Origin: an uncultured Alphaproteobacteria bacterium
GTDB taxonomy: Bacteria; Pseudomonadota; Alphaproteobacteria; Rs-D84
NCBI GenBank assembly: GCA_944389495.1
Contig: CALXMN010000002.1
Coordinates: 18,775 to 82,774 of the forward strand
DNA length: 64,000 nt
Reading direction: 5' to 3'
The position numbers were made by a program, and so were the translations under genes. Of the stretch, positions 5,444 to 61,460 are shown in pieces. Under the pieces are notes generated by a model. That model was not told where the DNA came from. It saw only the letters and a list, made by a program, of their open reading frames with translations, and did not search any database. Position 1 is the first letter of the stretch; each line of letters opens with the position of its first letter.

Positions 5444-6280
5444 TTTTTTAAAACGTGGCGGAATTTTTACCACGCGCTTTAACCCGAACATTCCCGGTTT
5501 GTCCGGTGCGTATATTGGACGAGCAAATGTTTGAATTACCCGGGCCCAGTGCAACCATTTTTGGCCGTGGGGTTTGTGCCGGGTTACCGTGTTAATTGTG
5601 CCGTTGCCGCGTCTTTGCAAATGGGCCAGCCAGTCCGCCCCACGGGCCGCAGCCTTGTGCACCAGCATTTGCATATCAACCGCTCCAAAGTGTAACAGGT
5701 ATAAATTTTTATCAATGTGAAAATTATGCCCGGATATACTGTGAAATCCGCGACCCCAATCAAGGGGGGCGGTTTTGACCACAGGCTTCGTATATCGGGT
5801 GGATAACAGGGCGTATTCGCGTTGGGATAAAATGGGGGCACGTTTATCCAATGTTTGTTCTGTTCGTATGTTTTGGCCAATATCCAGACCCAGCCCAGAT
5901 ACTGTATTTTTTATTTTTATTTCCGATAAATATTCGGCCAATGTTTTTTTTGTCGCTGGATCCACAACTAAAAATTCGTCACAGTCGCAACCAATTATAA
6001 TGTCGTATTGGTTAAGCAACTCGTTTGATAATTTGTTCATTAATCCGATGCGATATTTATCACCAATTGTGCGTGGCATATCTGTGTGTGGTAATTTTTT
6101 GATATGGGCCGCACCCACATTTTTGGGAACTTTCTGGTTCAGTCCGTCCAGATATATATACAGGTTTTCTGTACCAATTGCATCACCATAATATTTTATC
6201 CAACGGGTCAGAAAAAATTCATCGTTTCGTGCCATTGTTATGGCCGCAATTTTTTTAAGCCGGATTTTGTTTTGTGTCAT
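5432..6280 (-). CDS. Glycosyltransferase family 2-like (Glyco_tranf_2_4-type)
   Basis: The N-terminus IAAITMARNDEFFLTRWIKYYGDAIGTENLYIYLDG and the later CDCDEF motif fit Glyco_tranf_2_4. There is a 4-nt overlap with the upstream minus-strand gene. Confidence 0.45.
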   Translation of the reverse strand: MTQNKIRLKKIAAITMARNDEFFLTRWIKYYGDAIGTENLYIYLDGLNQKVPKNVGAAHIKKLPHTDMPRTIGDKYRIGLMNKLSNELLNQYDIIIGCDCDEFLVVDPATKKTLAEYLSEIKIKNTVSGLGLDIGQNIRTEQTLDKRAPILSQREYALLSTRYTKPVVKTAPLDWGRGFHSISGHNFHIDKNLYLLHFGAVDMQMLVHKAAARGADWLAHLQRRGNGTINTVTRHKPHGQKWLHWARVIQTFARPIYAPDKPGMFGLKRVVKIPPRFKKSGI

Positions 6281-7140
6281 AGTTTTTCCGTACGGATCTT
6301 TTTTATAAAGTATTTTATATTTCTTGATATTATTTTAATCGGATTTTTTGTCAAAAGCCAGTTTATATATTCCGGGCCATATGTTTCGCGGGCATCATAT
6401 AAAATCGAATCGCGTGCGGACCGGTTGGTGTGATTTAATACGTACAAAATCTGCCCCCCAAGTCGGCCGTTGTGACGGGTAAATGCCGCACGTTTAATAA
6501 ATGGCACTTTTGCGCGATATAAATGTTTTACATTATTATAAATGCTGCGCCCAGATGCAGAAAACAGGCATTTCCACGTAATGTGATGTTCGTTTAACAG
6601 GCGGGTAAAACCCTGTTCATACAGGTATGTGATTGCACCCTTGTTGGGCTGTTGTGTAACAGATGTAATAAATTTGTCAAACCAATCGGATGTAAATACT
6701 GCACGTCGCATCCCAATAAACCAGGATTGAATATGGGGATGCTTTTTATGGGGATTATATACCAGACCAAATGCATCTGTATTAAAAGATTCCATTTTCT
6801 GTAAATATGGCTTGATTGGATACAGGGGGCCATATACCGAATCGTTTATTAAATATATAATATCGTATTTTTGTAAAATCCCCGTGTCCCGCGCATAGGT
6901 GTATGCACGCTTGTACGAGCCAAAGTCATATTCGCCGTGACGTTGTGCCCCGGAATGTATTACATATTTTGAAATTTTGGCCAATTCTGTATCAGGTGTA
7001 TCGTTGTCCATAAATAAAATAACATCGCCATATTGTGCAAACTGTTTTATCATATACACCAATGACGAATTAATTTTATTTTGTGCGCTGTATCCCGCCA
7101 TCAAGAAAAGACGCCTAATAGTACTAGAATTTTTTTTCAT
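6277..7140 (-). CDS. Polysaccharide biosynthesis protein, rhamnan-synthesis-F (RgpF)-like glycosyltransferase (tentative)
   Basis: Soluble 287-aa protein with a HGEYDFGSYKRAY segment and overall similarity to RgpF/WbbX-type enzymes. It is co-directional with and translationally coupled to 5432..6280. Confidence 0.4.
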   Translation of the reverse strand: MKKNSSTIRRLFLMAGYSAQNKINSSLVYMIKQFAQYGDVILFMDNDTPDTELAKISKYVIHSGAQRHGEYDFGSYKRAYTYARDTGILQKYDIIYLINDSVYGPLYPIKPYLQKMESFNTDAFGLVYNPHKKHPHIQSWFIGMRRAVFTSDWFDKFITSVTQQPNKGAITYLYEQGFTRLLNEHHITWKCLFSASGRSIYNNVKHLYRAKVPFIKRAAFTRHNGRLGGQILYVLNHTNRSARDSILYDARETYGPEYINWLLTKNPIKIISRNIKYFIKKIRTEKL

Positions 7141-7188
7141 AACTGCTTATAATTTTTACATATATTTTATTTTTTTCAAGGATCAAAA

Positions 7189-8382
7189 ATGCTTGTGAAA
7201 TTTTATGCACCAAATTCATATAAACGGAAATGTATGGCGCGGGCACGTGTGCAACATAAAATAAATGTAAATATAGATTGTATACCTGGGGGAACCATTG
7301 TTAATTCATATGAGCACGGATTCGGTGTTTTTGACGGCAATGGAAATTTTATTGATGCCAGTCGGCAAATGCGCGGCAAAAATTGTCAGTTTATACCAAA
7401 ATTTGTGCCGGATGAAAAAACGCCCTTTGTTGACGCCGATGTAATTTATTTTGGGAATGTGTATCCGCATTTTGGACACTTTTTATTGGAACATATGAAC
7501 AGGGCATACGGATTATTGGCGGATGGTATGCGCGATTTGTCAATTGTTTTGGTGAATAATCAAAATATTAATCCGGTGCCGAAATATATTTATGATTTGC
7601 TGGATGCGTTGGGTGTGTCGCGTGATAGGATAATTATTTTGAACGAAACGAAAAAATTCAGAAAAGTGTATATCCCGCATCAGTCTTTTAATATCCCATT
7701 TTATTATGCGGATGAGTTTAGTAAACCTTTTGAATATATGGCCGCGCGGACGAATGGGGTGGGGGACGATAAAATTTATGTGTCGCGTGCGAAATTAAAA
7801 TCTGGACGTACATATGGCGAAGAAGGTATACAGCAAATATTTGCTAAAAATGGCTTTCGTGTTATTTATCCCGAAACAATGCCGCTTGTCGAACAAATCA
7901 GTTTTATGAAAAATTGTCGTGTGTTGGCGGGATGTGCGGGTACCGCATTACATTTGGCGTTGTTTATGCCACGTGGCGGCACAGTTATACAAATAAAACG
8001 CAATCGAATATCCAGGGATAATTTTGATATTCAAAATATGATAAATTCTGTAAAAAATTTTAATTCGTATTATGTTGCTGCATCGGTTGAGCGGGTTCGT
8101 ACGTCACACAGCACCGTTATGCCACAAATAATCGGACTGACAAAATATATGAAAAAATTTTTTGATGATAATAATTTTGCATATTCACCAGATGCACAAA
8201 TTCCAAATGATGCCGATTGGCGTGACTATAGAATCGCAATGGAAAAATTTAAAGCCGCCAGCAGTTCACCATTTATTTATAAATTTAAAGATTTAATGAT
8301 AAAACTGATGGCGTGCTTTATTATTGGACGCGAACGTCGTGGACGTTTTCGTAAATATATGAAAACGCATTGGCGGGACTAG
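7189..8382 (+). CDS. DUF563/GT61-family glycosyltransferase
   Basis: The HFGHFLLEHMNRAY motif is typical of the GT61/DUF563 capsular glycosyltransferases. It is transcribed divergently from the minus-strand GT pair. Confidence 0.5.
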   Translation: MLVKFYAPNSYKRKCMARARVQHKINVNIDCIPGGTIVNSYEHGFGVFDGNGNFIDASRQMRGKNCQFIPKFVPDEKTPFVDADVIYFGNVYPHFGHFLLEHMNRAYGLLADGMRDLSIVLVNNQNINPVPKYIYDLLDALGVSRDRIIILNETKKFRKVYIPHQSFNIPFYYADEFSKPFEYMAARTNGVGDDKIYVSRAKLKSGRTYGEEGIQQIFAKNGFRVIYPETMPLVEQISFMKNCRVLAGCAGTALHLALFMPRGGTVIQIKRNRISRDNFDIQNMINSVKNFNSYYVAASVERVRTSHSTVMPQIIGLTKYMKKFFDDNNFAYSPDAQIPNDADWRDYRIAMEKFKAASSSPFIYKFKDLMIKLMACFIIGRERRGRFRKYMKTHWRD

Positions 8383-13586: not shown

Positions 13587-14084
13587 AAAATGTGTTTTTA
13601 ATACATTATATGCGTCTGTAATTTTGGTAAATTGTTTTGTGGCCGCATCTTTATCACCGGTTGCGGTATCGGGATGGTGACGCTTGGCCAAGGTTCTATA
13701 TCGGGTCGATACTTCACGCCACGTGGCGGTAATTGGTAAATCCAGTGTTTTAAATGCCGTGCTGATACGTGGGGTGGGGGCGGTGCGTCGTGGTGGTGTT
13801 TTATCGAATGTGGTGCGGCCCGTAATGAAATCATTTAAAAATTTTATATAATCTTGTTGGTCTGATTCAACCTGGGTTTTATCACGCAGGGGGGCACCAA
13901 ATGTTTGGCGTTCCCAATCTTCTTCTATTTCATCGGGTGTCATACCGGCATAGTAATTCCAATTCTTGTTATATTCGGCCGCGTGTTCACGACAAAACCA
14001 CCAATATTCACGTAAATCGCGTGTTTTTGGTGCACGGCAGGTGCCGGCCTTGGTACAGCCGGGATGATCGCATTTTTTTATCAT
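13575..14084 (-). CDS. J-domain (DnaJ-like) protein with an N-terminal Cys-rich zinc-ribbon-like segment
   Basis: The C-terminal YRTLAKRHHPDTATGDKDAATKQFTKITDAYNVLK is a J domain with the HPD motif. The N-terminus reads CDHPGCTKAGTCRAP...FCREH. Its ATGA start overlaps xerD. Confidence 0.7.
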   Translation of the reverse strand: MIKKCDHPGCTKAGTCRAPKTRDLREYWWFCREHAAEYNKNWNYYAGMTPDEIEEDWERQTFGAPLRDKTQVESDQQDYIKFLNDFITGRTTFDKTPPRRTAPTPRISTAFKTLDLPITATWREVSTRYRTLAKRHHPDTATGDKDAATKQFTKITDAYNVLKTHFGKK

Positions 14085-14947
14085 TTCTTGGTTCCCCCGA
14101 TGTGTGCCAAAGGATGGTGTTCTGTTACGGTTTCGCGTAATTTTTCCGGCAGAACGTGTGTATAAATCTGGGTGGTGGAAATATCTTCGTGACCCAGCAT
14201 TGTTTGTATTGCCCGCAGATTGGCACCCCCCGCCAACAAGTGCGATGCAAATGAATGGCGCAGTACGTGTGGACTGACCCTGGTGGGGTCAATGCCGGCC
14301 AATACGGCACATTTTTTTAATATTTTGAAAAATCCATCACGGGTTATATGACCCGTTTTCCCAGGACCCGGAAAAACATATTTTGATTTGTCGTCACCGC
14401 GCAAAGACATCCATTTTTCTAATGCCCGTTGTGCGCGTTCGTGCATAGGAACTATGCGTTCTTTGGCCCCTTTGCCGTGAATTAACAGTTTATTACCAAG
14501 AATGGCCGTAATTGGTAATTCACACAGTTCTGATACGCGCAGGCCCGATGCATATACCAATTCCAGCATCGCCCGCAGGCGTGTTGCGTTGCGTACGTCG
14601 CCCGCAGATGATATTAATAATTCTATTTCTTTGACCGATAAAAATTTAGGCAGTGTACGCGCGCGTTTGGGTAATTCCAGATTTGCGGTTGGGTTTTCTG
14701 AAATAATTTTTTCCAGCATTAAAAATTTGTAAAATCCGCGCAGTGCACTGGCGTGGCGGGCAATTGATGATGCCGCGTCCGGTAATTTCGATAAATAATC
14801 TTGAATGTCGGCGGATGTCGCACCCATTAATCCGTTTGGAATATGGGCGTCTGCCTGGCGCAGGTCACAGGAATAACTTTCCAGTGTTTTTTTACTGCGT
14901 CCACGTTCCGCGGCAAGGGCCTCTAAAAACACATCTATGTAATTCAT
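14081..14947 (-). CDS. xerD: Tyrosine site-specific recombinase XerD
   Basis: The N-terminus MNYIDVFLEALAAERGRS matches the XerD N-terminus and the C-terminal catalytic HVLRHSFASHLL...LGHEDISTTQIYTHV carries the R-H-R-Y residues. The track ORF extends to 15031, and the likely start is the internal Met at 14947. Confidence 0.85.
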   Translation of the reverse strand: MNYIDVFLEALAAERGRSKKTLESYSCDLRQADAHIPNGLMGATSADIQDYLSKLPDAASSIARHASALRGFYKFLMLEKIISENPTANLELPKRARTLPKFLSVKEIELLISSAGDVRNATRLRAMLELVYASGLRVSELCELPITAILGNKLLIHGKGAKERIVPMHERAQRALEKWMSLRGDDKSKYVFPGPGKTGHITRDGFFKILKKCAVLAGIDPTRVSPHVLRHSFASHLLAGGANLRAIQTMLGHEDISTTQIYTHVLPEKLRETVTEHHPLAHIGGTKK

Positions 14948-15093
14948 TGATACAGAACGATTTCGGTTACATTCTGGGTTGCCGGAAATGATATAATCAT
15001 TAATATCACCAGTACCGCAATCAGTGTCCATATAATAATCTTGTTTCGTTTAGTGTTCTTTTTGCGTAATGGCATTATGTTTTCCTTGTTTTT

Positions 15094-16155
15094 TTATATT
15101 GTGTCAAAACTGGTTATAAATACGCCGGCACCGGCAATGATTATTAATGATGGGGCAACAATTGCCAATAAAGGTGGGACAAGACCCGTAGACCCCAGGG
15201 CATTGAACATATTTACAAGAAAATATACCGCAAAGCACGTTAATATCCCGATGCCGAATTTTATGCCAAAACTGTAATTACGGCGTTGGCGTGTCTGGGA
15301 AAATGCAACGCCCAATGTTGCCATTGCCACCATAGTTAATGGTAAAAACAGCAGGGTCCAAAACTGAACCAAATGACCACGCACAGGAACACCGATTTGC
15401 TGCATCTTTTTAATAAATTCTGGCAAATCCCAGAATGAAATCTGGTCTGGTTGCAGATAACGATCCAAAACCGTTTGTGGGGTCAGCAATGTTTTCATAT
15501 GCCAATCGGTTTGTTTTGGCGTGCCTTTGTCGTTCCAGGTCGTGGCGTTTGTTGCCGCCAGGCCCGCATCCGATAAGGTCAGGGTTTCGGCCTGGATCCG
15601 TTGGGTCAATTTAAATTGCGGGTTTTGTATATATACGGTTGCATTATCAAATAATAATATATTACCCGATTTATGCATATTTTTTGCGTTCATTGTTATA
15701 TAGCCGTTTTCCGATGATTCGCGCAGCCATATTTCGTCATCTATTAACACAAGATGATCCGGGGTTATGTCTTGGGAATTTAATTTTACAGAATAGGGAT
15801 TTAAAATGGTTGTTGCAAGTATACCAATTAATGCCGCGCCAAATAAAAATGGACGCGCCATTTGATATGGGGAAAGGCCCGCACTGGCCACAATGATACT
15901 CTCGCTGGATTTGGTAAGGTTATATGATGCGAGTAATGTTCCCATAAACACGGCCAGCGGTAAAAACATTGGTACATATTCCAATAATCGACGCCACGCA
16001 TCCAAAAATGCAGCCATTGCCGTCGGATTAGACGGCAGACGTTCCACAAATGTTACCGCCATAATAATTCCACAAACAACCAACATAACCAACCCAACGC
16101 CGGAAAAAAATCGGCGCAGCAGGAATCTGTTCAAAATTCGCGGTCTGAATCGCAT
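15094..16155 (-). CDS. LptF/LptG-family LPS export permease (YjgP/YjgQ)
   Basis: 353 aa with an N-terminal TM bundle, a large periplasmic beta-jellyroll-like insert and C-terminal TMs, which is the LptF/G architecture. Confidence 0.7.
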   Translation of the reverse strand: MRFRPRILNRFLLRRFFSGVGLVMLVVCGIIMAVTFVERLPSNPTAMAAFLDAWRRLLEYVPMFLPLAVFMGTLLASYNLTKSSESIIVASAGLSPYQMARPFLFGAALIGILATTILNPYSVKLNSQDITPDHLVLIDDEIWLRESSENGYITMNAKNMHKSGNILLFDNATVYIQNPQFKLTQRIQAETLTLSDAGLAATNATTWNDKGTPKQTDWHMKTLLTPQTVLDRYLQPDQISFWDLPEFIKKMQQIGVPVRGHLVQFWTLLFLPLTMVAMATLGVAFSQTRQRRNYSFGIKFGIGILTCFAVYFLVNMFNALGSTGLVPPLLAIVAPSLIIIAGAGVFITSFDTI

Positions 16156-18569: not shown

Positions 18570-18887
18570 ATGAATGATACAGCCGTGGTCGTAGATACAG
18601 TATCTCAAACGGCGCCCGCCGCCGCAACGCAAACGGTCGATATGTGGGGGTTATTGCTGTACTGTGTGATTATTTTCGCAATAATATACTTTTTTATGGT
18701 GCGACCAAATAAAAAACGTATGGCCGAATATCAAAAAATGCTGGATTCGATCCAGGTCGGTAATCGGGTGTTGGCGGCCGGTATTTATGGCACAGTTAAA
18801 AAAATAAATGAAAAAACAATCGAAATGGAAATCGCAAAGGGCGTCGTTATAGAAGTTAATAAGGGCGCAATTGCAAATGTTGAGTAA
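18570..18887 (+). CDS. yajC: Preprotein translocase subunit YajC
   Basis: Single TM plus a MVRPNKKRMAEYQKML...GIYGTV core. It lies immediately upstream of secD and secF. Confidence 0.85.
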   Translation: MNDTAVVVDTVSQTAPAAATQTVDMWGLLLYCVIIFAIIYFFMVRPNKKRMAEYQKMLDSIQVGNRVLAAGIYGTVKKINEKTIEMEIAKGVVIEVNKGAIANVE

Positions 18888-29073: not shown

Positions 29074-30353
29074 GACTGTTTGGTGTTAATTTTTTCACGC
29101 AGCATATCCCAGTATTCCAGACGCTTTTTTATTTCGCGTTCAAATCCGCGTTCAATTGGATAATAAAATTTTTGTCGACCCATAGATTCAGGAAAACAAT
29201 TTTGACCCGAAAAGCCAGACGCGGTATCTGGTTCGTAAATATATCCGGCGCCATAGCCCATATCGCGCATCATACGTGTTGGGGCGTTTAATATGTTTTT
29301 GGGGGGTATTAAACTGCCCGTTTCACGGGCGCTTCGATATGCGGTTGTTTGGGCCCGATAATTCGCCGTGCTTTTTGGCGCAGTTCCCAGGTATATTACC
29401 AATTCCGTCAGGGCCAAGTCGCCTTCTGGACTGCCCATACGTTCGTATACCTGCCACGCAGCCAAAGCGATTTGCATAGCGTTCGGATCCGCCAAACCAA
29501 TATCCTCCATCGCGAATCGGGTTAAACGTCGAAAAAGGTACATTGGATCCTGGCCAGAGGTCATCATTCGGGCCGTCCAATACAGGGCCGCGTCCGTATC
29601 GCTGGCGCGCAGTGATTTATGTACCGCAGAAATTAAGTTATAATGTTCGTCGCCTGTTTTATCGGATAATGGTGCGCGCTTTTGAATTGCGGAATCCAAT
29701 GCATCGGGCGATAGTTTCTTTTTAAAATTTGCGTTTGATAAATATTCAATTGTATTTAATAAAAAACGGGCGTCGCCATCCGCCATCTGGGCCAGGTGCA
29801 GGCGCGCCGCATCGTCCAATGGTAATTTTTTATCCAAAAATTTTTCGGCACGTGTTATTAGTGTCATTAAATCTTCGGTTGATAATGGTTGTAATACGCC
29901 AACGTGACAGCGCGACAGTAATGCGTTATTTAAATTAAAACTGGGATTTTCGGTGGTGGCGCCCATAAATACAACGGTTCCATCTTCTAGGTATGGTAAT
30001 AACGTGTCTTGTTGTGTTTTGTTAAATCTGTGTATTTCGTCGATAAATAATAATGTCCCACGGCCGATTTCACGGTTCATACGTGCGGCCTCCATCGCTT
30101 TTTTTATATCTGCCGTGCCCGAAAATACCGCAGACATTGGCACAAAGTCCATATCAACAGATTTTGCCAATGCACGGGCAATTGTGGTCTTGCCACAACC
30201 CGGGGGACCCCATAAGATTAAATTGGATAATTTATGATTGTCAACCATACGACGTACCAGACCGTTTTCACCCAATAATTGAGGCTGGCCCACAATTTCA
30301 TCAATTGTGGCCGGGCGCATTAAATCGGCAAGTGGTCGGGTCTCGGATGACAT
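29070..30353 (-). CDS. rarA: Replication-associated recombination protein A (MgsA/RarA AAA+ ATPase)
   Basis: Walker A LILWGPPGCGKTT, the IHRFNKTQQD sensor, and the RarA C-terminal helical domain. Confidence 0.9.
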   Translation of the reverse strand: MSSETRPLADLMRPATIDEIVGQPQLLGENGLVRRMVDNHKLSNLILWGPPGCGKTTIARALAKSVDMDFVPMSAVFSGTADIKKAMEAARMNREIGRGTLLFIDEIHRFNKTQQDTLLPYLEDGTVVFMGATTENPSFNLNNALLSRCHVGVLQPLSTEDLMTLITRAEKFLDKKLPLDDAARLHLAQMADGDARFLLNTIEYLSNANFKKKLSPDALDSAIQKRAPLSDKTGDEHYNLISAVHKSLRASDTDAALYWTARMMTSGQDPMYLFRRLTRFAMEDIGLADPNAMQIALAAWQVYERMGSPEGDLALTELVIYLGTAPKSTANYRAQTTAYRSARETGSLIPPKNILNAPTRMMRDMGYGAGYIYEPDTASGFSGQNCFPESMGRQKFYYPIERGFEREIKKRLEYWDMLREKINTKQS

Positions 30354-30418
30354 TTTTTATTGTTTTACTTATGTTTTATTTAATCTTTATTTATGATATA
30401 ATAAATTCTAGTAAATTA

Positions 30419-30799
30419 ATGTGGGGTTTTCAATTGGTAAGTGTAAATAAAGATTCGTCGGATTTTACGTTGGCGGTGGCAAATTTGGCCGCGGCCGCAA
30501 TTGCCGCAAATCCAAAGTTAACAATGGAACAGGCCGTGCGCAGCGCACGCGAAAGTTTGCGGGGAACCGCATTAACTGCAACGCAAATTGCCGCGTCTGT
30601 GCGACCAGATAAAATCCAGTGTTTCGAAGACGGAACCTGGCACGTTATGCTGCGGCGATATGTGCGGCGAAAATTTAATATGACGCCAGAACAGTACAGA
30701 GCAAAATGGGGCTTGGCAGATGATTATCCGTTTGTGGCACCGAATTATTCTGTGCGACGTTCAAAAATTGCAAAAAAATCTGGATTGGGTAAAAAATAA
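30419..30799 (+). CDS. mucR: Ros/MucR-family transcriptional regulator
   Basis: C-terminal TPEQYRAKWGLADDYPFVAPNYSVRRSKIAKKSGLGKK is the Ros/MucR signature. The zinc-ligand region (IQCFEDGTWHVMLRRYVRRKF) keeps only part of the Cys/His set. An alternative ATG lies at 30371. The long track ORF from 30053 is an upstream extension antisense to rarA. Confidence 0.75.
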   Translation: MWGFQLVSVNKDSSDFTLAVANLAAAAIAANPKLTMEQAVRSARESLRGTALTATQIAASVRPDKIQCFEDGTWHVMLRRYVRRKFNMTPEQYRAKWGLADDYPFVAPNYSVRRSKIAKKSGLGKK

Positions 30800-30810
30800 A
30801 AAGGGCAATT

Positions 30811-32757
30811 ATGTCTGAAAATTTTAGAAAGATTGTCGCAACGCCGGAACAGGCCGCAAAAAAACTGCGTCAGATAATAGAAAATAAAAGACCAAGCGAA
30901 TATGTTCGGGAACGCAGACGTGAAAAAAATGATGCGGGAATTAAACAAGAAAATCCGGAATTACGTGATGCGGCCGCTATATTTGGCCTGAATGTGGCCA
31001 AGTGGTCGGCGTGGCTGGCCGCGGGGGGAAGTCAATTTTTGTTAACCCTGGCACGGTGGTTGACGATGGATAATCAATTCTTGCGCAAAATGGAAAATAA
31101 ATTTGCCATTATGAATGTGGGTAAAAATAGGCGTGGTAAACCGAAAAAATTATCGTCGTTTGCAAAAAAATATCCTAATTTGTCGGCGCATATTTTGTGG
31201 TTGGTGGGACTGTCGGCGGTGTCGGGTGGTGCATATGTTGTGGCAGAATATGGACCCGATGTGGTGCGCACAGTAAAAGAACAACGTGCAAATCGTGCCG
31301 CAGAACGAGAGGCAGAGAATCAAGCACGTGGAACATATCGGGCGTTTTTGAATAAAATGCGGCCAATAACACCATTTTTAATCGCCGATTTAATTGCCAA
31401 AGAGGGTGTACACGTTGATAAAGAAACTGGTCTGCATACACCGTATCGTGATTCACGAGAGATTCCAACAATTGGCTTTGGGTCAACAATGCTTAAAGAT
31501 GGCAGTAGGGTTACAATGGATACACCGCCCATCACCACAGAAGAAGCATACGAATTGGCGCGGTGGCATCTGGAGGAGGGCGAAACATATTTCGTGTTGT
31601 ATTGTTATGATGTTGCCCAGGATAACGTTGATATTCAATCAACCAGTGAGGCACTGGGGCTTAGTTCCATTGTGTATAATTCTTATTCTAAATTAATAGA
31701 AAACCCGAGTGATAAAAACCATAGAGAACGTTTTAATGTCTTGCGTGATTTGTATGACGCATATGGGTATGCGGTGCCGGACAGTTTGGTGCAACAATGT
31801 TTTGCAGAATATCCTGTGCGTGATGTAACCAGTTTTGGTAACGCGTGGCTGAATAGCGGTGATATTAATGAAATGGCCGATAAATTGGGGGGATTCTTGG
31901 CCGGGGGACGTGGGCTGTATTGGCGGCGCTGGTTAGAGGCGGGCTTGTTAACCGGGGAAATTACACCCCAGATGTTATTAAATTGTCCGGTAAATGGTGT
32001 TTATGAATTTTTTTGCGTTATGGGACAGGAAAGAAGCGCGTTCTTTACCGGCGATATTAATAATCGACGGGTAAATAAACATACGTTTGACGAGTTTAAA
32101 AAATGGTTGGCCAATCCTGTGAATGCCCAGGGGCAAAGTTTGAAAAACTGGCGCAGGGTGGGCGATTATTTACCGCCGGATATATTGGCGTTCTGTCAAA
32201 ACGGAAAATGCGAGTTGAATAACAAGGGGTTTGAAAAAATAACGCGTGCCCACAGTGCCGTTGCCGTTAAAACATATACATTGGGTTATGATGCACAATA
32301 TAAAAAGGCAATTTCTGCATACAAAACCGGCGATTATCGTGCAGCCGTGGCACAGTTTGAAACAATGATTAATTTATATCCAGATAATGCATTATTGCAT
32401 AATGACTTGGCGGCATCGTATAACAAACTGGGGCGTTATGAAGATGCGATAAGGCAGGCGCGTGAAATACTGCACCGGATTGGTGATAAGAGTCAATATG
32501 CCGCCGCACAATATAATGCCGGTTTTGCGTATGAGCAATTGGGCGATTTAACACGTGCTTTGGCAAATTATAAGTTGGCCGTTACAAATGGTAATTTGAT
32601 CGTACGTGATGACGTTTTGCGCGTACAAAAGAAAATAAAATCTGGAAAAACGATTTCGTTTTATGATGCTGCAAAAAAGATGAATGCAGATGATGCGATC
32701 GGGCGTGTGGATAATATAAAACAGGACCAGATAAAAAATAACGAATATTCTGCATAA
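30811..32757 (+). CDS. Membrane-anchored lysozyme-like (GH24 phage-type muramidase fold) protein with C-terminal TPR repeats
   Basis: Internal TM (HILWLVGLSAVSGGAYVV). A GH24-like segment follows: KEGVHVDKETGLHTPYRDSREIPTIGFGST...ITTEEAYELARWHL. The C-terminus carries TPR-like repeats (AISAYKTGDYRAAVAQFE...; YNAGFAYEQLGDLTRALANYKLA). Confidence 0.5.
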   Translation: MSENFRKIVATPEQAAKKLRQIIENKRPSEYVRERRREKNDAGIKQENPELRDAAAIFGLNVAKWSAWLAAGGSQFLLTLARWLTMDNQFLRKMENKFAIMNVGKNRRGKPKKLSSFAKKYPNLSAHILWLVGLSAVSGGAYVVAEYGPDVVRTVKEQRANRAAEREAENQARGTYRAFLNKMRPITPFLIADLIAKEGVHVDKETGLHTPYRDSREIPTIGFGSTMLKDGSRVTMDTPPITTEEAYELARWHLEEGETYFVLYCYDVAQDNVDIQSTSEALGLSSIVYNSYSKLIENPSDKNHRERFNVLRDLYDAYGYAVPDSLVQQCFAEYPVRDVTSFGNAWLNSGDINEMADKLGGFLAGGRGLYWRRWLEAGLLTGEITPQMLLNCPVNGVYEFFCVMGQERSAFFTGDINNRRVNKHTFDEFKKWLANPVNAQGQSLKNWRRVGDYLPPDILAFCQNGKCELNNKGFEKITRAHSAVAVKTYTLGYDAQYKKAISAYKTGDYRAAVAQFETMINLYPDNALLHNDLAASYNKLGRYEDAIRQAREILHRIGDKSQYAAAQYNAGFAYEQLGDLTRALANYKLAVTNGNLIVRDDVLRVQKKIKSGKTISFYDAAKKMNADDAIGRVDNIKQDQIKNNEYSA

Positions 32758-32776
32758 TAAAATTTGGTGAATTAAT

Positions 32777-34783
32777 ATGAAGGTATATATAAATTATAAT
32801 GATGCGCGGTGGCGGAAATATAAAATCGATTTCGAACAAATTGCAAGTGCGGCAGCCAAAAATCTGGGATCCGATGCCGAGGTTTCAATTGTTCTGACAA
32901 ATGATTCAGAAATTCACAGATTAAATCGTGAATACCGTAACATAGATAAACCAACAAATGTTTTATCGTTCGAATTGGATGATGATATTTTGTTGGGTGA
33001 TATTTATATTTCTTTGGATACGGCCCAGGCCGAGGCAGATGCGGAAAATATATCACTGGCCGATCACGTGGCACATTTGGTGGTGCACGGTATGTTGCAT
33101 CTGCAGGGGTATGATCATATTCGCGACAGTGATGCAATTGTTATGGAAAAGGCCGAGGTTGATATTTTAAAAACATTGGGGATAAAAAATCCCTATGTAC
33201 AGGATTCCGGCGTATACAGCGATTTTTCATCTTGTCCAGGCGACAGATTTTTGTCGCGTATTAAACGTATAAATTTTCGTGAAAATGGTTTTTGGCAATA
33301 TGTTGTGATGGCCCTGTTGGGTGGGGTGGGGGCATTGGGATTTGCACCATACCATTTATGGTGGATGACATTGATTTCAATTGTTGCGGTGTATATGTTG
33401 TCTGTGCGGGCGGCGTCGCGACGACCCGGTATGATTGGTGCCTTTCTGCGTGTTTTACCTTTTTCTGCGGTATATGCCGTTGCGATGTTTTGGTGGGTGA
33501 CGCATTCTATATATGTGGTACCCGAATTAACAAGTCAATTTGCAATATGGACCATTCCTGCATTAATTGGTATAGGTATTGTTGGGGGAATCGTCTTTGC
33601 AATTCCGTTTGTTGTGATTATGCGTATGTGCACGTTTCCGCCGTGTAGACCGTTTTTATTTGCTGCAATGTGGACATTGGTTTTGTGGTTGCGCGAATGG
33701 GTGTTTACGGGGTTCCCGTGGAATCCAATCGCAAATATTACGTTAACTGTGCCGGTAATTTCTAATTCAATGGCTTTGTGGGGGGCACTGGGGTTAACGT
33801 TTGTTGTTATTGGTTTTATGGCGGCATTTTCAGAGTTATTAATGGCGCGAAAAAATAAATATAATTGGATAGTTCTTGGTGTGTTTGCGATTTTGCTGGT
33901 TATTGGTATGATTGCAGGATACAGAAATATTCAATTTGCCCATCTTGTAAATAATGGGACAAGTCCGGTTATTCGTATTGTTCAGCCCGCACAATCGCAA
34001 TCACAAAAAATTGGGGCAACGCGTGCGGATGCCGTTCGTGTCGCAAGTGAAAATGTCCGGAACTTGATTAATTTGGCAAGCGCGCCGGGAAATCCGAATA
34101 TCGTTGTATTTCCAGAAACATCGTACCCATTTGCAATTGTGGATAATGATAATATGCCAATTGCAAATGTGTTGCGACGTAATGTTATAATTGGGGCAAA
34201 TTATTTTTCAGATGGTAAATTATATAATTCTATGGTTGTTGCCGGAACAGATGGCGAAATTGAAAAGATATACAGTAAATCGCATTTGGTCCCGTTTGGG
34301 GAATACAGACCGTTTGGAGATATTATACCCACCCCCGGACAATTGGAGGCCGGCACAGGGGCAGAAATTATTAATGTTGATGGTTTTTCATTTGCACCGG
34401 CAATATGTTATGAGATTATTTTTTCAGATTCTTTGGTTCCGGATAACGAAACACCAGATGCGATAATAAATATTACAAATGATACGTGGTTTGGAAACAC
34501 GCCGGGAACATACCAGCATTTGGATATGGTGCGCCGCTATGCAATCGAATCGGGTTTGCCAATTGTGCGGGCAAATTATTCTGGCATAAGCGCATTTGTG
34601 TCATCAGATGGTGATGTGTTGACACAGATTCCCGTGGCAAATGTTGGATATATGGATGGGGTTGTTTATGGGGCACATATTACACCATATCGAAAAATTG
34701 GCCGTGATGGATGGATGATAATTATATTGTTGTTTTCGTGTATGTGCACGTTTACGCTGCGTAGAGCGATTTTGCATAAATAA
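32777..34783 (+). CDS. lnt: Single ORF encoding the endoribonuclease YbeY domain (aa 1 to about 150) fused in-frame to apolipoprotein N-acyltransferase Lnt (from about aa 178)
   Basis: The YbeY zinc motif HLVVHGMLHLQGYDH is followed without a stop by the Lnt TM region (LLGGVGALGFAPY...) and the CN-hydrolase domain (VFPETS...; ICYEIIF; NITNDTWFG). A possible internal Lnt start is the ATG at 33308. Confidence 0.75.
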   Translation: MKVYINYNDARWRKYKIDFEQIASAAAKNLGSDAEVSIVLTNDSEIHRLNREYRNIDKPTNVLSFELDDDILLGDIYISLDTAQAEADAENISLADHVAHLVVHGMLHLQGYDHIRDSDAIVMEKAEVDILKTLGIKNPYVQDSGVYSDFSSCPGDRFLSRIKRINFRENGFWQYVVMALLGGVGALGFAPYHLWWMTLISIVAVYMLSVRAASRRPGMIGAFLRVLPFSAVYAVAMFWWVTHSIYVVPELTSQFAIWTIPALIGIGIVGGIVFAIPFVVIMRMCTFPPCRPFLFAAMWTLVLWLREWVFTGFPWNPIANITLTVPVISNSMALWGALGLTFVVIGFMAAFSELLMARKNKYNWIVLGVFAILLVIGMIAGYRNIQFAHLVNNGTSPVIRIVQPAQSQSQKIGATRADAVRVASENVRNLINLASAPGNPNIVVFPETSYPFAIVDNDNMPIANVLRRNVIIGANYFSDGKLYNSMVVAGTDGEIEKIYSKSHLVPFGEYRPFGDIIPTPGQLEAGTGAEIINVDGFSFAPAICYEIIFSDSLVPDNETPDAIINITNDTWFGNTPGTYQHLDMVRRYAIESGLPIVRANYSGISAFVSSDGDVLTQIPVANVGYMDGVVYGAHITPYRKIGRDGWMIIILLFSCMCTFTLRRAILHK

Positions 34784-34790
34784 TTTTATG

Positions 34791-35018
34791 CTATAATTGA
34801 CCAAGTGATTTTTTTAAAATCCATACACGAATCGCAGATGATAAATTTGTGTCAGGTGTGCGGTTGTCATCAATATGCTCGATAATCGATGCAATAGATT
34901 TATGCTCGTTGGCTGCGATTTTTCGTAATTGTTGAATAAATTCGTGCTCCAGCGAAATGCTGGTTTGATGCCCCGATAAAGATACAGAAAGTTTTGTCAT
35001 TCTATAATTTTCCCGCAA
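34791..35018 (-). CDS. Ribbon-helix-helix protein, RHH_4 family
   Basis: The sequence LSVSLSGHQTSISLEHEFIQQLRKIAANEHKSIASIIEHID...NLSSAIRVWIL matches the conserved alphaproteobacterial RHH_4 pattern. It overlaps the upstream gene by 17 nt. Confidence 0.6.
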   Translation of the reverse strand: MRENYRMTKLSVSLSGHQTSISLEHEFIQQLRKIAANEHKSIASIIEHIDDNRTPDTNLSSAIRVWILKKSLGQL

Positions 35019-35436
35019 TTAAACAATCGGACATTGCCTGGTATACGTCTTGGTATGTACGCAATGTTTTTAATGTTGTGTTATCAAGCATTAAAAATTT
35101 ACCAAACGTATCAAATGCAAACCAAAACAGGTCGTTTCGACCAAAAACGGTTTTCCCACGTAACTGGGAAATGCCACTTAAATTACGATTGGCTTGTGCC
35201 AGTGATGGAATTGGATATTTGGCACCACGCGATATTTCGTTTGGACCAAAAATATATCCCGAACCTAAATTTATACCGCCACATCCCAGGTAAAAATCAA
35301 TCAGTGATTTCGGCAGAATTGCCGCACGTATTTGCTGTAAAATGGTGTTTGCAAGTGTAATTTCGCGTTCGGTTGCAGGCGGTGCAATTATCGCACCGCG
35401 TTGTGTCATTGAAGATAAAAATTCTGTACAGTTCAT
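35002..35436 (-). CDS. SUKH/SMI1-KNR4-like protein (immunity-protein fold), tentative
   Basis: LPKSLIDFYLGCGGINLGSGYIFGPNEI and the later FAFDTFGKFLMLDNTT resemble the SMI1/KNR4 core motifs. 144 aa, cytoplasmic. Confidence 0.4.
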   Translation of the reverse strand: MNCTEFLSSMTQRGAIIAPPATEREITLANTILQQIRAAILPKSLIDFYLGCGGINLGSGYIFGPNEISRGAKYPIPSLAQANRNLSGISQLRGKTVFGRNDLFWFAFDTFGKFLMLDNTTLKTLRTYQDVYQAMSDCLIAGKL

Positions 35437-35447
35437 TATGCGTGCTA

Positions 35448-35951
35448 TTACATATTGTGACTGTGTTTGATTTGGGCCGCCATCTGACTTAACCGGTCGT
35501 CGGTTGCATTGCCGCCATCACCACCAGATGCATTATGACTTGGTATATATACTTTTTTTGCCGGATTGGGTAACCATACGGTTGGGGCATCGTGTTGTTC
35601 CGCTATGAATATATCCAGGTTATTGGATTGTGGAAATGTCCAACACATAAATAAATTTTCCGTTTCCAATTTACCACCCCATATTAACGGAATACGAAAA
35701 CGAATCGATGTGTTTCGTGGTAATGCGCGACCCATTATAAGTGCCATAAATTCATCCTGGGTCAGGTTCATAAATGCCAGTTCGTTTACCGAATCTGTTA
35801 ACGATTCCATAAATTCGTGACATAATTTTTTATATCTGGAAAACCAATCAGAATCAACACGGCTGGGGCTTGGGCGGAATTCCATTACCGGCATATCGCC
35901 CATATTCATATTGGCCAATCGTGTCTGGGCAGATTCAAGATTCAGTTGCAT
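35448..35951 (-). CDS. Hypothetical protein (167 aa), no recognisable family
   Basis: The start codon overlaps the stop of the upstream gene by 1 nt, and 11 nt separate it from the downstream gene, so it is an operon member. Confidence 0.4.
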   Translation of the reverse strand: MQLNLESAQTRLANMNMGDMPVMEFRPSPSRVDSDWFSRYKKLCHEFMESLTDSVNELAFMNLTQDEFMALIMGRALPRNTSIRFRIPLIWGGKLETENLFMCWTFPQSNNLDIFIAEQHDAPTVWLPNPAKKVYIPSHNASGGDGGNATDDRLSQMAAQIKHSHNM

Positions 35952-36880
35952 CAGATTTTGCCTATGTGTGTTATGACGGCGTCAATGTATTGTGAATACG
36001 CGTCGAACATTCCGTCGTCGTCCGCCGCCAATGGTGGGTTTGGATTTTGTCGGATATATTCGCGAACCTGATCAATGCTGTTAAACATCATTATATCTGT
36101 GAATTCAGATGTTGGCGCATCGGGCGCATTTATGACAAAACCGTTTATTTCTATGCTTGTTTCGTCCAATGTGTCGGAAAATATCTGTTGAAATTTTTCA
36201 ATGATTGTACGTACATCAGTCGTTTTAAGCCCAACGCATCCAATCCACATCGTTTCATTTGCACCAATTGCAATTAATGTCGTTTGTAATGTGCCAATTC
36301 GTGGATTGGGCTTTACAGTGTATCCCGCGGCAATGAATATTTCGCGCAAGGCCGCGGCATCTGCGTCAATGTTATTTGATTGGGGGGGCGGTGATGATGA
36401 TATTCTTTGTGTCGGTTGTGATGATGTATAATTGCCGTTCAAAGTTGGTAATACCAAACGAGGTGGCCGAGCGTTGGCGCCCGGGATAGTCTTTGGGGCC
36501 GATGTTTGTGCCGGGGGTAATTCGGCGGGTAATATATCCAATGTTGACGCGTCGGGGTTTTGGGGTGTGATTGACGGATTGTCGGTGGTTTCCTTGTTAA
36601 TAATATTGGATACGTGCATAATCGGAAGGCGTATTTTTCGCATACGTGGACGCAATATCAGGTACAGACCAAATATTGTTATAAAAATTGTTGTTGCCAC
36701 AGATATGTAAAATCCCGTCTTGATAGGCGTACGTGCGGCCTGCATCGATGCGACATACCCCCAATGTGATGCGGAAAATATGTCAAAACCGAATACCGTA
36801 TTAAACCAAAAGCAGGCACCCAATGTTACGGCCAGTAACCATAATATGCACAATAATATATTATCAAAACGTATTCTCAT
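35951..36880 (-). CDS. Membrane protein: two N-terminal TMs, a Pro/Ser/Thr-rich linker and a C-terminal globular domain of unknown function
   Basis: TMs at about aa 7-26 and 56-76, a low-complexity PxxP/S-rich region at aa 100-180, and a C-terminal domain of about 130 aa. It is the first gene of the minus-strand operon. Confidence 0.5.
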   Translation of the reverse strand: MRIRFDNILLCILWLLAVTLGACFWFNTVFGFDIFSASHWGYVASMQAARTPIKTGFYISVATTIFITIFGLYLILRPRMRKIRLPIMHVSNIINKETTDNPSITPQNPDASTLDILPAELPPAQTSAPKTIPGANARPPRLVLPTLNGNYTSSQPTQRISSSPPPQSNNIDADAAALREIFIAAGYTVKPNPRIGTLQTTLIAIGANETMWIGCVGLKTTDVRTIIEKFQQIFSDTLDETSIEINGFVINAPDAPTSEFTDIMMFNSIDQVREYIRQNPNPPLAADDDGMFDAYSQYIDAVITHIGKI

Positions 36881-56182: not shown

Positions 56183-57808
56183 ATGGCTGGGGCGGGAAAA
56201 AGTTCTGTTCGGCGTCGTGCGGCGAATACAAATGTTTATCTGATTGGGTCGGGTATAGGGTCTTTGGCGGCGGCGGTATATTTAATACGGGATGCCAAGG
56301 TTCCAGGTGAAAATATTCGTATATTTGATGCTTTGGACACAGATGGCGGCAGTTTGGATGGGGCCGGTGATGCACGGCGTGGATTTTTAATTCGCGGTGG
56401 ACGTATGCTTAATATACCAACATACGAATGTTTCCAAGACATTATGACGGCGGTACCATCCGAGGAGTTTGATGGAATTTCTGCTGAACAAGAATTTTTG
56501 AATTATAACGAAGAGTTTAAAACGCACGCAAATGCCCGTTTGGTGGATAAAAACGGAAAACGAATCGATGTTAATCAAATGGGCTTTTCTGCGGATGACA
56601 GAATAGATATGGAAAAACTGGTGCTGATGGAGACAGAAAAATCGTTGGGTGCAAAACGAATCGATCAGGTCTTTGGTGCACATTTTTTTAAAACAAATTT
56701 TTGGTATATGTGGCAAACGACTTTTGCGTTTCAACCTTGGTCCAGTGCGGCGGAATTACGTCGGTATATGATACGGTTTATGCACGAATTTCCGCGTATA
56801 CACACATTGGCGGGGGTCGCACGCACCGCATATAACCAACACGATTCCGTGGTTAAGCCAATTGTGGATTGGTTGAAGGGCCAAGGTGTACAAGTTATCT
56901 TGGGGGCGCGTGTTACGGATATTTTGTTTGATCAAACAAAGCGTGGGGAGTATGTCGCGACACTTATTGAATATACTCAACGTGGTAAAAAGCACACGAT
57001 TAATGTTTTACCGACGGATATCGTTACGTTTACAAATGGCTGTATGACGGATAATTCAAACCAGGCAACAACCGATACAGTTGCAAAATATGAAAAAGAT
57101 GTTGAAGCGCCATCTTTTGGATTGTGGCGCAAAATTGCAAATGGACGGCCGGAATTTGGCGACCCAGATGTCTTTTGTGGGCGGCCAGATGAAACAATGT
57201 GGATGTCTTTTACGGTTACAATTAATAATAATCCGCAGTTGTTGGATTATATTCAGCGCTTTACGCATAATCATCCGGGGGGCGGGGCGTTGGTTACGTT
57301 CAAGGATTCTGCGTGGCGGTTGTCTTTTGTCGTGGCGCGTCAGCCACATTTTAAGAACCAACCAATGGATACACAAATATTCTGGGGGTATTCTTTGAAT
57401 ATGTTTGTTAATGGTGACTTTGTCAAAAAGCCGATGTACAAATGCACCGGGCGCGAGATTATAACCGAACTGATGGGGCATTTGCATATCGATGCCAAAA
57501 ATCAGGCGGATATGATGCGCGGACTTATCTGCAGAACATCGATTATGCCGTATATTACCGCAGAATTTCAGCCGCGAAAGCCCGGTGATCGACCACCGGT
57601 TATACCGCGTGGATATGAAAATTTTGCCTTTATCAGTCAATTTGCCGAGGTGCCAGATGACGTCGTTTTTACGATGGAATATTCTGTACGTGCCGCCCAG
57701 CGGGCCGTGTATTATTTGATGGGGGTTGATAAAGATTTAACACCCGTCAGTCGACATCAATATTCGCCACGAACAATGTTAAAAGCATTCTTGAAATTGC
57801 ATAGTTAA
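56183..57808 (+). CDS. Oleate hydratase (myosin-cross-reactive-antigen family FAD enzyme)
   Basis: N-terminal FAD motif YLIGSGIGSLAAAVYLIRDA and MCRA-family conservation along the whole length (GGRMLN; HEFPRIHTLAGV). 541 aa. Confidence 0.65.
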   Translation: MAGAGKSSVRRRAANTNVYLIGSGIGSLAAAVYLIRDAKVPGENIRIFDALDTDGGSLDGAGDARRGFLIRGGRMLNIPTYECFQDIMTAVPSEEFDGISAEQEFLNYNEEFKTHANARLVDKNGKRIDVNQMGFSADDRIDMEKLVLMETEKSLGAKRIDQVFGAHFFKTNFWYMWQTTFAFQPWSSAAELRRYMIRFMHEFPRIHTLAGVARTAYNQHDSVVKPIVDWLKGQGVQVILGARVTDILFDQTKRGEYVATLIEYTQRGKKHTINVLPTDIVTFTNGCMTDNSNQATTDTVAKYEKDVEAPSFGLWRKIANGRPEFGDPDVFCGRPDETMWMSFTVTINNNPQLLDYIQRFTHNHPGGGALVTFKDSAWRLSFVVARQPHFKNQPMDTQIFWGYSLNMFVNGDFVKKPMYKCTGREIITELMGHLHIDAKNQADMMRGLICRTSIMPYITAEFQPRKPGDRPPVIPRGYENFAFISQFAEVPDDVVFTMEYSVRAAQRAVYYLMGVDKDLTPVSRHQYSPRTMLKAFLKLHS

Positions 57809-60155: not shown

Positions 60156-61460
60156 TTATTTAACGATTTTTCCGCGTAAAGAAGCCTTGTTTGCGGCGGT
60201 AAATTTAATATTTGCCAATTGGGGGGCAGGTGCGTCGTGCGGCGTGTCGGTTATGCACGGTTGCATATACGGCGTACGGTATACCAGATGACGACCGGTT
60301 TTGTCGGGGCCTTCTAGCATACAGGGCAGGGTTTTGCCGACAAGCGATTCGTTAAAATTGCGTTGGATTTCGTTTAATAATGTATCAAGTTTTGTTAAAC
60401 GTTCTGATTTTATTTTTTCTGGAATTTGGTTTGGCATCAGTGCCGCCGCCGTGTGTGGACGTGGTGAATATTTAAATGAAAAAGAGTTAATGTATTTTAT
60501 GCGGCGTGCAATATCCAATGTTTGTTCAAAGTCCGAATCGGTTTCGCCGGGAAAGCCAACAATAAAGTCACTGGAAATTTGAATGTCGGGTCTGGCGTTC
60601 TTTAATTTGTCAACTATATCTATATATAGATTTAGCGTGTATGGACGGTTCATCTTTGTCAATACATTTTGCGACCCGCTTTGTATAGGCATATTTAAAA
60701 ATGGCAATAATTTTGGTTCTGTTCTGAAGGCGTCTATTAAATCGTCCGTCATTTCGGTTGGATAACTTGATGTAAACCGAATGCGTTTTATGGTGTCCAA
60801 TTTTGCCGTTGTGCCAATTAAATCCGACAGACGATAGATATGCCCATCAGGGGACGTGTATTTATATCCATTTACATTCTGGCCAAGGAAACATATTTCA
60901 ATTGCCCCGGTTTTTGCGGCGTGTGTTACGTCGCGTATGACATCGTCAAATGGACGTGATATTTCGCGGCCACGTGTGTATGGTACAATGCAATATGTAC
61001 AGCAATGATTGCAGCCTTCTTGAATTGGGATATAGGCCAGTGCAGGCGATGTGTCGGGTTGGGGCATTTCGTCGAATTTTTCCAATCCACCCAGGTCTAT
61101 GTTAAACAGTTTGGTATCCGGATTTTCCAGTATTTCGGGCAATTTATGATAACTTTGTGGTCCCAGAACAAAATTCAGTTCAGGAACGCGACGGAATGCC
61201 TCGGCACCCGATTCGCGTGCAACACAGCCGACAATTCCAAACAGCGCGTTTGGTTTCTTTTCCAATCGTATACGCCCCAGTGCGCTGAATACTTTATCCG
61301 TTGCTTTGGCACGGACCGCGCACGTGTTTAATATGATTATGTCCGCGTCCGGTATGTTCTCTGTTTGGTTCATACCACGGGCGCGCAGCATCGCGGCAAT
61401 CCGCTGGCCATCGTACACGTTCATTTGACAGCCGAATGTGTGAATATAAAACTGTTTCAT
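60156..61460 (-). CDS. miaB: tRNA-i6A37 methylthiotransferase MiaB
   Basis: The N-terminal MTTase cluster is FGCQMN and the radical-SAM CxxxCxxC is CNHCCTYC. A C-terminal TRAM domain is present. Confidence 0.9.
   Translation of the reverse strand: MKQFYIHTFGCQMNVYDGQRIAAMLRARGMNQTENIPDADIIILNTCAVRAKATDKVFSALGRIRLEKKPNALFGIVGCVARESGAEAFRRVPELNFVLGPQSYHKLPEILENPDTKLFNIDLGGLEKFDEMPQPDTSPALAYIPIQEGCNHCCTYCIVPYTRGREISRPFDDVIRDVTHAAKTGAIEICFLGQNVNGYKYTSPDGHIYRLSDLIGTTAKLDTIKRIRFTSSYPTEMTDDLIDAFRTEPKLLPFLNMPIQSGSQNVLTKMNRPYTLNLYIDIVDKLKNARPDIQISSDFIVGFPGETDSDFEQTLDIARRIKYINSFSFKYSPRPHTAAALMPNQIPEKIKSERLTKLDTLLNEIQRNFNESLVGKTLPCMLEGPDKTGRHLVYRTPYMQPCITDTPHDAPAPQLANIKFTAANKASLRGKIVK

Follow-up and report, generated by a model that had tools for sequence, protein, structure and literature searches.

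An in-frame ybeY-lnt fusion gene conserved in the reduced-genome alphaproteobacterial lineage Rs-D84

Does one long reading frame of an uncultured alphaproteobacterium encode a single protein that joins YbeY to the apolipoprotein N-acyltransferase Lnt, or are two proteins made from it? The question is raised by an open reading frame (ORF) located at 32777..34783 (+) of a window of 64,000 nucleotides (nt), which represents positions 18,775 to 82,774 of contig CALXMN010000002.1 (assembly GCA_944389495.1, GTDB lineage Rs-D84). The ORF begins with ATG and comprises 668 codons and a stop codon, with YbeY and Lnt in one frame; amino acid (aa) numbers refer throughout to this 668-aa fusion and nt positions to the 64-kb window. 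The product is very likely a single bifunctional, membrane-anchored polypeptide, in which a cytoplasmic YbeY is tethered to the inner membrane via Lnt. The fusion is real and appears to be old, and it is probably a by-product of genome shrinkage that is tolerated and involves no new mechanism. Taken singly, the two halves are an ordinary YbeY and an ordinary Lnt, and the novelty is the domain architecture, which is confined to one reduced-genome group of Alphaproteobacteria.

The extent of the gene was defined by the ORF list, the Pfam and NCBIfam domains and full-length homologues. Three Pfam matches were found in the 668-aa protein, namely YbeY at aa 15-133 (PF02130; E 4.7e-36; 123.9 bits against a cut-off of 25), LNT_N at aa 182-347 (PF20154; 66.4 bits against 27.1) and CN_hydrolase at aa 469-618 (PF00795; 79.3 bits against 23.2). 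Two NCBIfam equivalogs also scored past their curated cut-offs: TIGR00043 (YbeY) at aa 13-137, with 132.3 bits against 45, and TIGR00546 (lnt) at aa 229-613, with 224.2 bits against 132.9. The ORF, Pfam and NCBIfam results agree with the sequence-only reading of this DNA, which had described one 668-aa ORF with YbeY and a complete Lnt and no stop codon between them.

To what extent the same arrangement occurs elsewhere was analyzed at the protein and genome levels. A search of 5.8 billion proteins, clustered at 90% identity, revealed more than 120 fused clusters of about 650-686 aa, all of which carried the three Pfam domains; their identity to the query ranged from 100% down to 58%. The genome scan, with one genome per GTDB species, revealed 194 relatives, and the locus results given here are those of the best 80 of the 194. 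In 80 of these 80 the match to the query ran continuously from residue 1 to about residue 660, without a stop between the domains, so that the fusion looked for in related genomes was present in each of them. The sources were ‘Candidatus Enterousia’ and related Alphaproteobacteria metagenome-assembled genomes (MAGs) of the GTDB order Rs-D84, smaller than 1 Mb and recovered from the gut or rumen, with humans, chickens, ruminants and horses as hosts. Combined with the window and a duplicate contig (L081, which duplicates the window), the 80 loci gave 82 translated sequences from 81 independent loci, and in 82/82 YbeY and Lnt lay in one stop-free frame. An open junction of 35 codons would arise by chance with P ~0.1 in a single sequence of the window's composition; chance is excluded because the same open frame is kept in all 82 sequences, with synonymous sites near saturation across the 80 species. 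More distant homologues were sought exhaustively with HMMER among 1.84 billion representatives clustered at 50% identity, and eight full-length fused representatives were found, six at 42-59% identity (P0121-P0124, P0126, P0128) and two at 34-36% (P0136, P0139). In the NCBI records, the MAG proteins P0126 and P0136 are assigned to ‘Rickettsiales bacterium’, and P0139 is assigned to ‘Alphaproteobacteria bacterium’. The arrangement had been called unusual, which holds relative to E. coli and fails inside the Rs-D84 lineage, where the fusion is the norm.

The YbeY domain occupies aa ~13-143 (32813..33205, +) and has a zinc hydrolase fold, as assigned from Pfam, NCBIfam, alignment, Foldseek and the ratio of nonsynonymous to synonymous substitution rates (dN/dS); its location is predicted to be cytoplasmic. 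It aligned with residues 24-153 of E. coli YbeY (1XM5), and the homology ended at aa 143, which corresponds to E. coli residue 153 of 155. The zinc-binding motif HGMLHLQGYDH, read directly from the sequence, lies at aa 104-114 (33086..33118, +), rather than near aa 150 as had first been stated. Its three histidines, H104, H108 and H114, correspond to H114, H118 and H124 of E. coli and were invariant across 81 fused proteins. So were R54, T60, D75 and E124, the counterparts of E. coli R59, T65, D85 and E134; the gate-keeping arginine (R54) and the invariant threonine (T60) sit in the segment R-x-x-D-K-P-T-N-V-L-S-F. At the position of E. coli T42, which contacts uS11, the fusion carries S37, a conservative change that is invariant in the fused family. 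YbeY is classically known for 16S rRNA 3' processing in late 30S-subunit maturation. In a 2026 preprint it is described as a zinc-dependent uS11 isoaspartylase, whose conserved residues bind zinc, stabilise the intermediate or contact uS11, and in which the substrate residue uS11 Cys121 displaces His124 from the YbeY zinc (bioRxiv 10.64898/2026.08.26.747345). Given its intact active site, the fused YbeY domain is predicted to be catalytically competent. The gene for uS11 (rpsK) was sought by its Asn-Gly-Cys signature in the window and in all retrieved loci and was not found there.

Lnt occupies aa 172-668 (33290..34783, +), with transmembrane (TM) helices followed by a periplasmic nitrilase-like domain. 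Alignment to the P. aeruginosa and E. coli Lnt structures started at aa ~173 and spanned nearly full-length Lnt. The motifs PETSYP (E447), SKSHLVPFGEY (K501) and ICYE (C544) aligned with the corresponding motifs of P. aeruginosa Lnt, and the catalytic triad E447, K501 and C544 (E. coli E267, K335 and C387) was invariant in the 81 fused proteins. The fused Lnt would thus be expected to carry out its normal job, the N-acylation of lipoproteins on the periplasmic side.

The two homologies are separated by about 30 residues, from the end of YbeY (aa 143) to the start of Lnt (aa ~173). The earlier description of a linker of this length needs a correction, given that its last ~10-15 residues correspond to the ordinary cytoplasmic N-terminal tail of Lnt; after allowing for this tail, only about 15-20 residues would be truly new. 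The junction, aa 144-171 (33206..33289, +), consists of an acidic, disordered tether with C153-P154-G155, followed by a membrane-adjacent basic helix at aa 154-164. Selection on the three segments was estimated by the Nei-Gojobori method from 32 species pairs at 80-99% protein identity, with aa 141-170 taken as the linker. The dN/dS was lowest for YbeY (0.08), 0.12 for Lnt and ~0.17-0.18 for the linker; the junction is translated, because it is under purifying selection in the frame of the fusion (dN/dS ~0.17). Linker indels among the relatives also preserved the reading frame. The 12 positions that directly follow NPY were acidic; in the 20 residues before the first TM helix (TM1), K+R averaged 4.4 against 1.05 for D+E.

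Cysteine made up 12.7% of the linker against 1.3% overall, and C153, P154 and G155 were each at least 90% conserved in the 81 sequences. Among the 79 species loci, the motif C-x(3-6)-CC was found in 58, CCPG in 47 and exactly three cysteines in 53. The window protein is atypical in this respect (VYSDFSSCPG against the consensus VCSDLSCCPG), as C153 alone is kept and two of the three cysteines are lost. In the divergent fused relatives the tether motif is missing and the linkers are very short; in P0123, NPY-KKSNT leads straight into TM1 with ~6 residues. A regulatory or metal-binding role for the cysteine-rich tether is possible but unsupported. In three loci of rumen relatives (L030, L042 and L060; also in P0096 and P0101) the tether is expanded to 8-11 cysteines, for example ECNCGCGGKCNCVDCKCKNCSCCNCPGD, at about 150-200 aa into the fused ORF, and this insert looks like a small metal-binding, metallothionein-like element.

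Structure prediction was performed with AlphaFold2 (AF2) on the 81-sequence alignment and gave a mean predicted local distance difference test score (pLDDT) of 86.3 and a predicted template modelling score (pTM) of 0.75. The pLDDT was above 90 for most of aa 1-110 and 82-94 over aa 1-140. Low confidence was limited to the tether, aa 143-152 (pLDDT <50, predicted disordered), and a loop at ~506-518; the tether was followed by the short helix 154-164 ahead of TM1. The Lnt part was made up of long helices (172-388), a domain of mixed alpha/beta structure (399-628) and, in keeping with the final TM helix of Lnt, a helix at the C-terminal end (643-667). When the model was compared by Foldseek, the TM-score was 0.81-0.82 against 1XM5 (root-mean-square deviation 2.4 Å, 36% identity) and 0.77-0.80 against the Lnt structures 5XHQ, 5VRG and 5N6H. 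The model thus contained two confident domains, and no sign of a docked interface between them was seen.

The N-terminus is cytoplasmic in solved Lnt structures. The basic residues before TM1 point to the same orientation by the positive-inside rule, and on both grounds the Lnt N-terminus of the fusion is expected to be cytoplasmic. An N-terminal YbeY should accordingly be compatible with the topology of Lnt: it would stay cytoplasmic and would be attached to the inner membrane by the ~30 junction residues, ~10 of which are disordered. In the working proposed here, the YbeY domain (aa 1-143) would stay in the cytoplasm and would be followed by a flexible acidic stretch, cysteine-rich in most relatives, and by the short membrane-adjacent basic helix; Lnt would come last, with its first TM helix acting as an N-in signal-anchor. 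YbeY would in this way be held at the inner membrane at a 1:1 stoichiometry with Lnt, and each domain would do its normal job, YbeY in late 30S-subunit maturation and Lnt in N-acylation of lipoproteins on the periplasmic side. The polypeptide probably stays uncleaved after translation, and it is presumably the only YbeY and the only Lnt of the genome; no second ybeY or lnt was found within the 64-kb window.

Several other explanations of the locus were weighed against a single bifunctional polypeptide. The ybeY and lnt genes might in fact be separate, with the stop codon or frameshift between them erased by a sequencing or assembly error, and two database entries that end just past the linker, P0147 (164 aa) and P0148 (219 aa), look split in this way. 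As stand-alone YbeY proteins both were rejected: P0147 lies on a 751-bp contig and is most likely truncated at the contig edge, and in P0148 a frameshift has turned the sequence after the linker into nonsense. Such an error is extremely unlikely, since the open frame is shared by 82/82 sequences from many studies, hosts and assemblers, and the linker has frame-preserving indels and a dN/dS of about 0.17; the missed stop or frameshift that had been considered for the window is refuted by these results and by the more than 120 fused clusters. It is very improbable, too, that the YbeY half is a decayed remnant that serves as a mere cytoplasmic extension of Lnt and is no enzyme any more. The replacement of the uS11-contact residue R44 of E. 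coli would fit such decay, whereas the lowest dN/dS of the whole protein, the zinc ligands and R54, T60, D75 and E124 invariant in 81 sequences, and the confident predicted fold with its similarity to 1XM5 argue against it.

The two remaining alternatives concern how a separate Lnt might be made. According to one, the full-length product would provide YbeY, and Lnt would arise from the same ORF by internal initiation or translational coupling, either at the ATG at 33308..33310 (+; codon 178), which the sequence-only reading had proposed as the Lnt start, or at an upstream TTG or GTG. Some in-frame ATG, GTG or TTG is present between the YbeY end and TM1 in 75/80 loci; the window itself has a TTG at codon 159, and a protein started there would begin plausibly for an Lnt, with MSRIKRINFRENGFWQY... 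The position of such a start is never conserved across the 80 loci, however. Codon 178 is the best-conserved in-frame start position of this interval, yet a start codon is found there in only 33/80 loci; the aligned proteins have M, L, F, C or Y as residue 178, and the codon lies inside the predicted TM1 helix (aa 172-186 in the AF2 model), which initiation at this site would halve. As a conserved mechanism, initiation at 33308 is therefore not supported. The junction upstream is moreover selected and motif-bearing, which would be needless for a mere YbeY tail, and the short linkers of relatives such as P0123 leave no room for a separate Lnt N-terminus. In a promoter and terminator scan of 30300-35100 the counts equalled the shuffled expectation, with 16 promoter-like sites against 15.2 ± 3.9. 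Two proteins from one ORF are thus considered unlikely. The other alternative, that the fusion is translated whole and that a cytoplasmic or membrane protease then cuts the tether to release a soluble YbeY and a normal Lnt, is likewise judged improbable. The tether (aa 143-152) is predicted to be disordered and protease-accessible, and its conserved CPG/Cys motif could be a recognition element; against this, no known cleavage motif was identified in the tether, and the very short, motif-free linkers of divergent fused relatives mean that cleavage would not be family-wide.

Some observations weigh against the single bifunctional polypeptide and the origin proposed for it. The uS11-contact residue R44 of E. 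coli is not kept, being V39 in the window protein and V or T among the fused proteins. Strong Shine-Dalgarno (SD) sequences are missing at 61/81 true starts and SD sequences are weak throughout the lineage, so that a missing SD says little against internal initiation and the SD test is uninformative on it. The lack of a second ybeY or lnt refers to the 64-kb window, and a further stand-alone copy may exist elsewhere in the genome. In the nearest relative with an unfused lnt, this gene is preceded by one other than ybeY, and ancestral adjacency of the two genes is unsupported there. Internal initiation or tether cleavage may also occur in addition to the full-length product. On balance, the description of the locus as a genuine bifunctional fusion was upheld by the single frame kept across relatives, the purifying selection on the junction and the invariance of both catalytic sites.

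As to the origin of the gene, fusion of probably neighbouring genes during genome reduction would be the most economical cause. An ancestral ybeY-(corC)-lnt arrangement would have lost corC, the intergenic DNA and the stop codon in the ancestor of the reduced-genome Rs-D84, and the fusion would have been kept since. The GTDB order Rs-D84, to which Ca. Enterousia belongs, has members with genomes of about 0.75-1.0 Mb (PMC12306168); a MAG from the same study (isolate 82_22-119, locus L073) carries the fusion. In a rough neighbour-joining (NJ) tree of the Lnt part, the fused proteins formed a group in which a few unfused Lnts were also placed. An old fusion followed by fission would agree with this pattern, as would repeated fusion, and so rough a tree does not decide between the two. 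The nearest unfused relative (P0134; L082, L083) was evaluated as a pre-fusion state and rejected: the gene before lnt encodes 165-174 aa without a YbeY or other Pfam match, and it ends 5 nt before lnt. Some ~2 kb downstream of this unfused lnt, the ‘Rickettsiales bacterium’ MAG that bears it also carries a compact type II CRISPR-Cas locus (L082 5195-9371, L083 5106-9282), with a 990-aa Cas9 (HNH, RuvC), Cas1 and Cas2.

The neighbourhood of the fusion was then compared with the canonical operon. No phoH/ybeZ or corC was found next to it, the upstream gene being that of a TPR protein and the downstream genes lying on the opposite strand. PhoH and CorC were also absent among the 25 window ORFs run through Pfam (the window has 59 non-overlapping ORFs of at least 100 aa), and a PhoH Walker-A regular expression gave no match over all window ORFs of at least 100 aa. 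The absence of corC and ybeZ that had been noted is thus confirmed for the adjacent positions and the 25 scanned ORFs. A gene for a MiaB-like radical-SAM methylthiotransferase (UPF0004 and Radical_SAM) is located at 60156-61460 (-), ~25 kb from the fusion and on the other strand. In E. coli, the ybeZ-ybeY-ybeX-lnt operon directly follows miaB; the distance and strand of the miaB-like gene indicate that the canonical cluster is dispersed.

Synteny was conserved between the window and a 59%-identical relative (L084), with genes for a RarA/MgsA-like AAA protein, a Ros/MucR-family regulator and the TPR protein before the fusion and with opposite-strand genes, an RHH_4 gene and then three small genes, after it. 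The TPR gene, directly upstream at 30811-32757 (+), encodes 648 aa, and its counterpart in L084 lies at 6013-8004. The protein has C-terminal TPR repeats, an apparent TM segment near aa 125-147 and, at aa 209-260, a weak phage-lysozyme-like region (E 3e-4, below the Pfam cut-off). Because the TPR gene overlaps the start of the fusion by 4 nt in the 59%-identical relative, the TPR gene and ybeY-lnt are probably co-transcribed. The TPR gene is closely preceded by that of a Ros/MucR-type zinc-finger regulator at ~30425-30799 (+), in the C-terminal part of the listed ORF 30053-30799; the assignment rests on the matching position of the ROS_MUCR gene in L084 (5637-6011), and the listed ORF probably over-extends the true start. 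The opposite-strand block consists of genes at 34791-35018 (-), 35002-35436 (-), 35448-35951 (-) and 35951-36880 (-), in the same order in L081 and L084. The gene at 34791-35018 encodes an RHH_4 ribbon-helix-helix protein (E 2.5e-20) and overlaps by 17 nt the gene at 35002-35436, whose 144-aa product has a weak SMI1/SUKH-like match, and the two following proteins are without a Pfam match. The four genes could form a small regulatory or immunity-like module.

Two further genes of the window were recorded. The ORF at 56183-57808 (+) matched the MCRA family with 647 bits (fatty-acid hydratase, myosin cross-reactive antigen), which deserves mention in a lineage reported to have a genome of <1 Mb and to be without lipid biosynthesis. 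A tyrosine recombinase with Phage_integrase and an N-terminal SAM-like domain (E 1e-42) is encoded at 14081-15031 (-) and adjoins an LptF/LptG permease gene at 15094-16155 (-); rather than a prophage integrase, this recombinase is most likely a chromosomal enzyme of the XerC/XerD type.

Few bacterial proteins are conserved as widely as YbeY, whose actual biochemical role was clarified only recently. The fusion represents a natural experiment, as the YbeY of an entire lineage appears to be permanently anchored to the inner membrane at 1:1 with Lnt. If it is the only copy, YbeY can perform its essential job without free diffusion, and the site and substrate of YbeY are constrained to free uS11 or a late pre-30S particle near the membrane. 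The fusion can also be regarded as a ‘Rosetta-stone’ link between genes that are co-operonic across Proteobacteria, with the fusion of neighbouring genes in shrinking genomes as the simpler explanation. In a more far-reaching reading, the fusion would not be a mere neutral by-product. By anchoring YbeY, Lnt would bring the final 30S maturation step (uS11 isoaspartylation with platform closure) to the inner membrane, and the tether would gate YbeY in cis as a metal-binding or ‘cysteine-switch’ element. We regard this as a long shot; if true, it would couple ribosome production to the envelope or redox state and would offer a functional explanation of why ybeY and lnt share an operon in Proteobacteria, as has long been noted.

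There is also a consequence for annotation. Where the fused proteins are named in public records, they are called only ‘apolipoprotein N-acyltransferase’, and name-based pipelines, for example essential-gene or genome-completeness surveys, could score YbeY as missing from Rs-D84. Among the public entries, a 57%-identical fusion on CAVGNU010000003.1 (L055) is labelled ‘Bacteroides fragilis’ and P0084 is labelled ‘Muribaculaceae bacterium’; both very probably stem from alphaproteobacterial contigs that were mis-binned into public MAGs.

In a literature search, no description of a YbeY-Lnt fusion or of a membrane-anchored YbeY was found, and we know of no YbeY anchored to the membrane by an integral membrane enzyme. 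The closest system for comparison is the E. coli operon ybeZ-ybeY-ybeX-lnt (bioRxiv 10.1101/2023.03.20.533420). The same two enzymes are encoded there in the same order, ybeY before lnt, with identical catalytic residues. In E. coli, YbeY (155 aa) and Lnt (512 aa) are separate, whereas the window has one polypeptide, corC and ybeZ are not adjacent, and a junction of ~15-20 residues is added, with a cysteine-rich motif in most relatives.

Covalent fusion of Lnt to another enzyme has a precedent in mycobacterial Ppm1, in which an Lnt-like domain is combined with polyprenol-monophosphomannose synthase. Ppm1 resembles the present protein in that Lnt tolerates fusion to a cytoplasm-facing enzyme domain. 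The partner in Ppm1 is attached at the C-terminal side and acts in the same envelope-lipid pathway, in contrast to the N-terminal partner from ribosome biogenesis found here, and to our knowledge ribosome biogenesis has no biochemical link to lipoprotein acylation. An extension C-terminal to the Lnt match, of considerable length, was also observed in one protein of 816 aa (P0189) in the HMMER search. For YbeY, plant chloroplasts provide a comparable case, in which the protein is fused to a HAD-like hydrolase domain. YbeY can thus work inside a larger multidomain protein, although the plant partner is soluble. Finally, the tether recalls the ‘cysteine switch’ of metzincins and the uS11 Cys121 switch, as a cysteine-containing segment lies near a metzincin-type three-histidine zinc site in the sequence. 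The likeness is limited, given that C-x(3-6)-CC-P-G does not match PRCGxPD, that the window protein has one cysteine, and that reach of the linker cysteines to the active site is unsupported, the segment having a pLDDT below 50 in the AF2 model.

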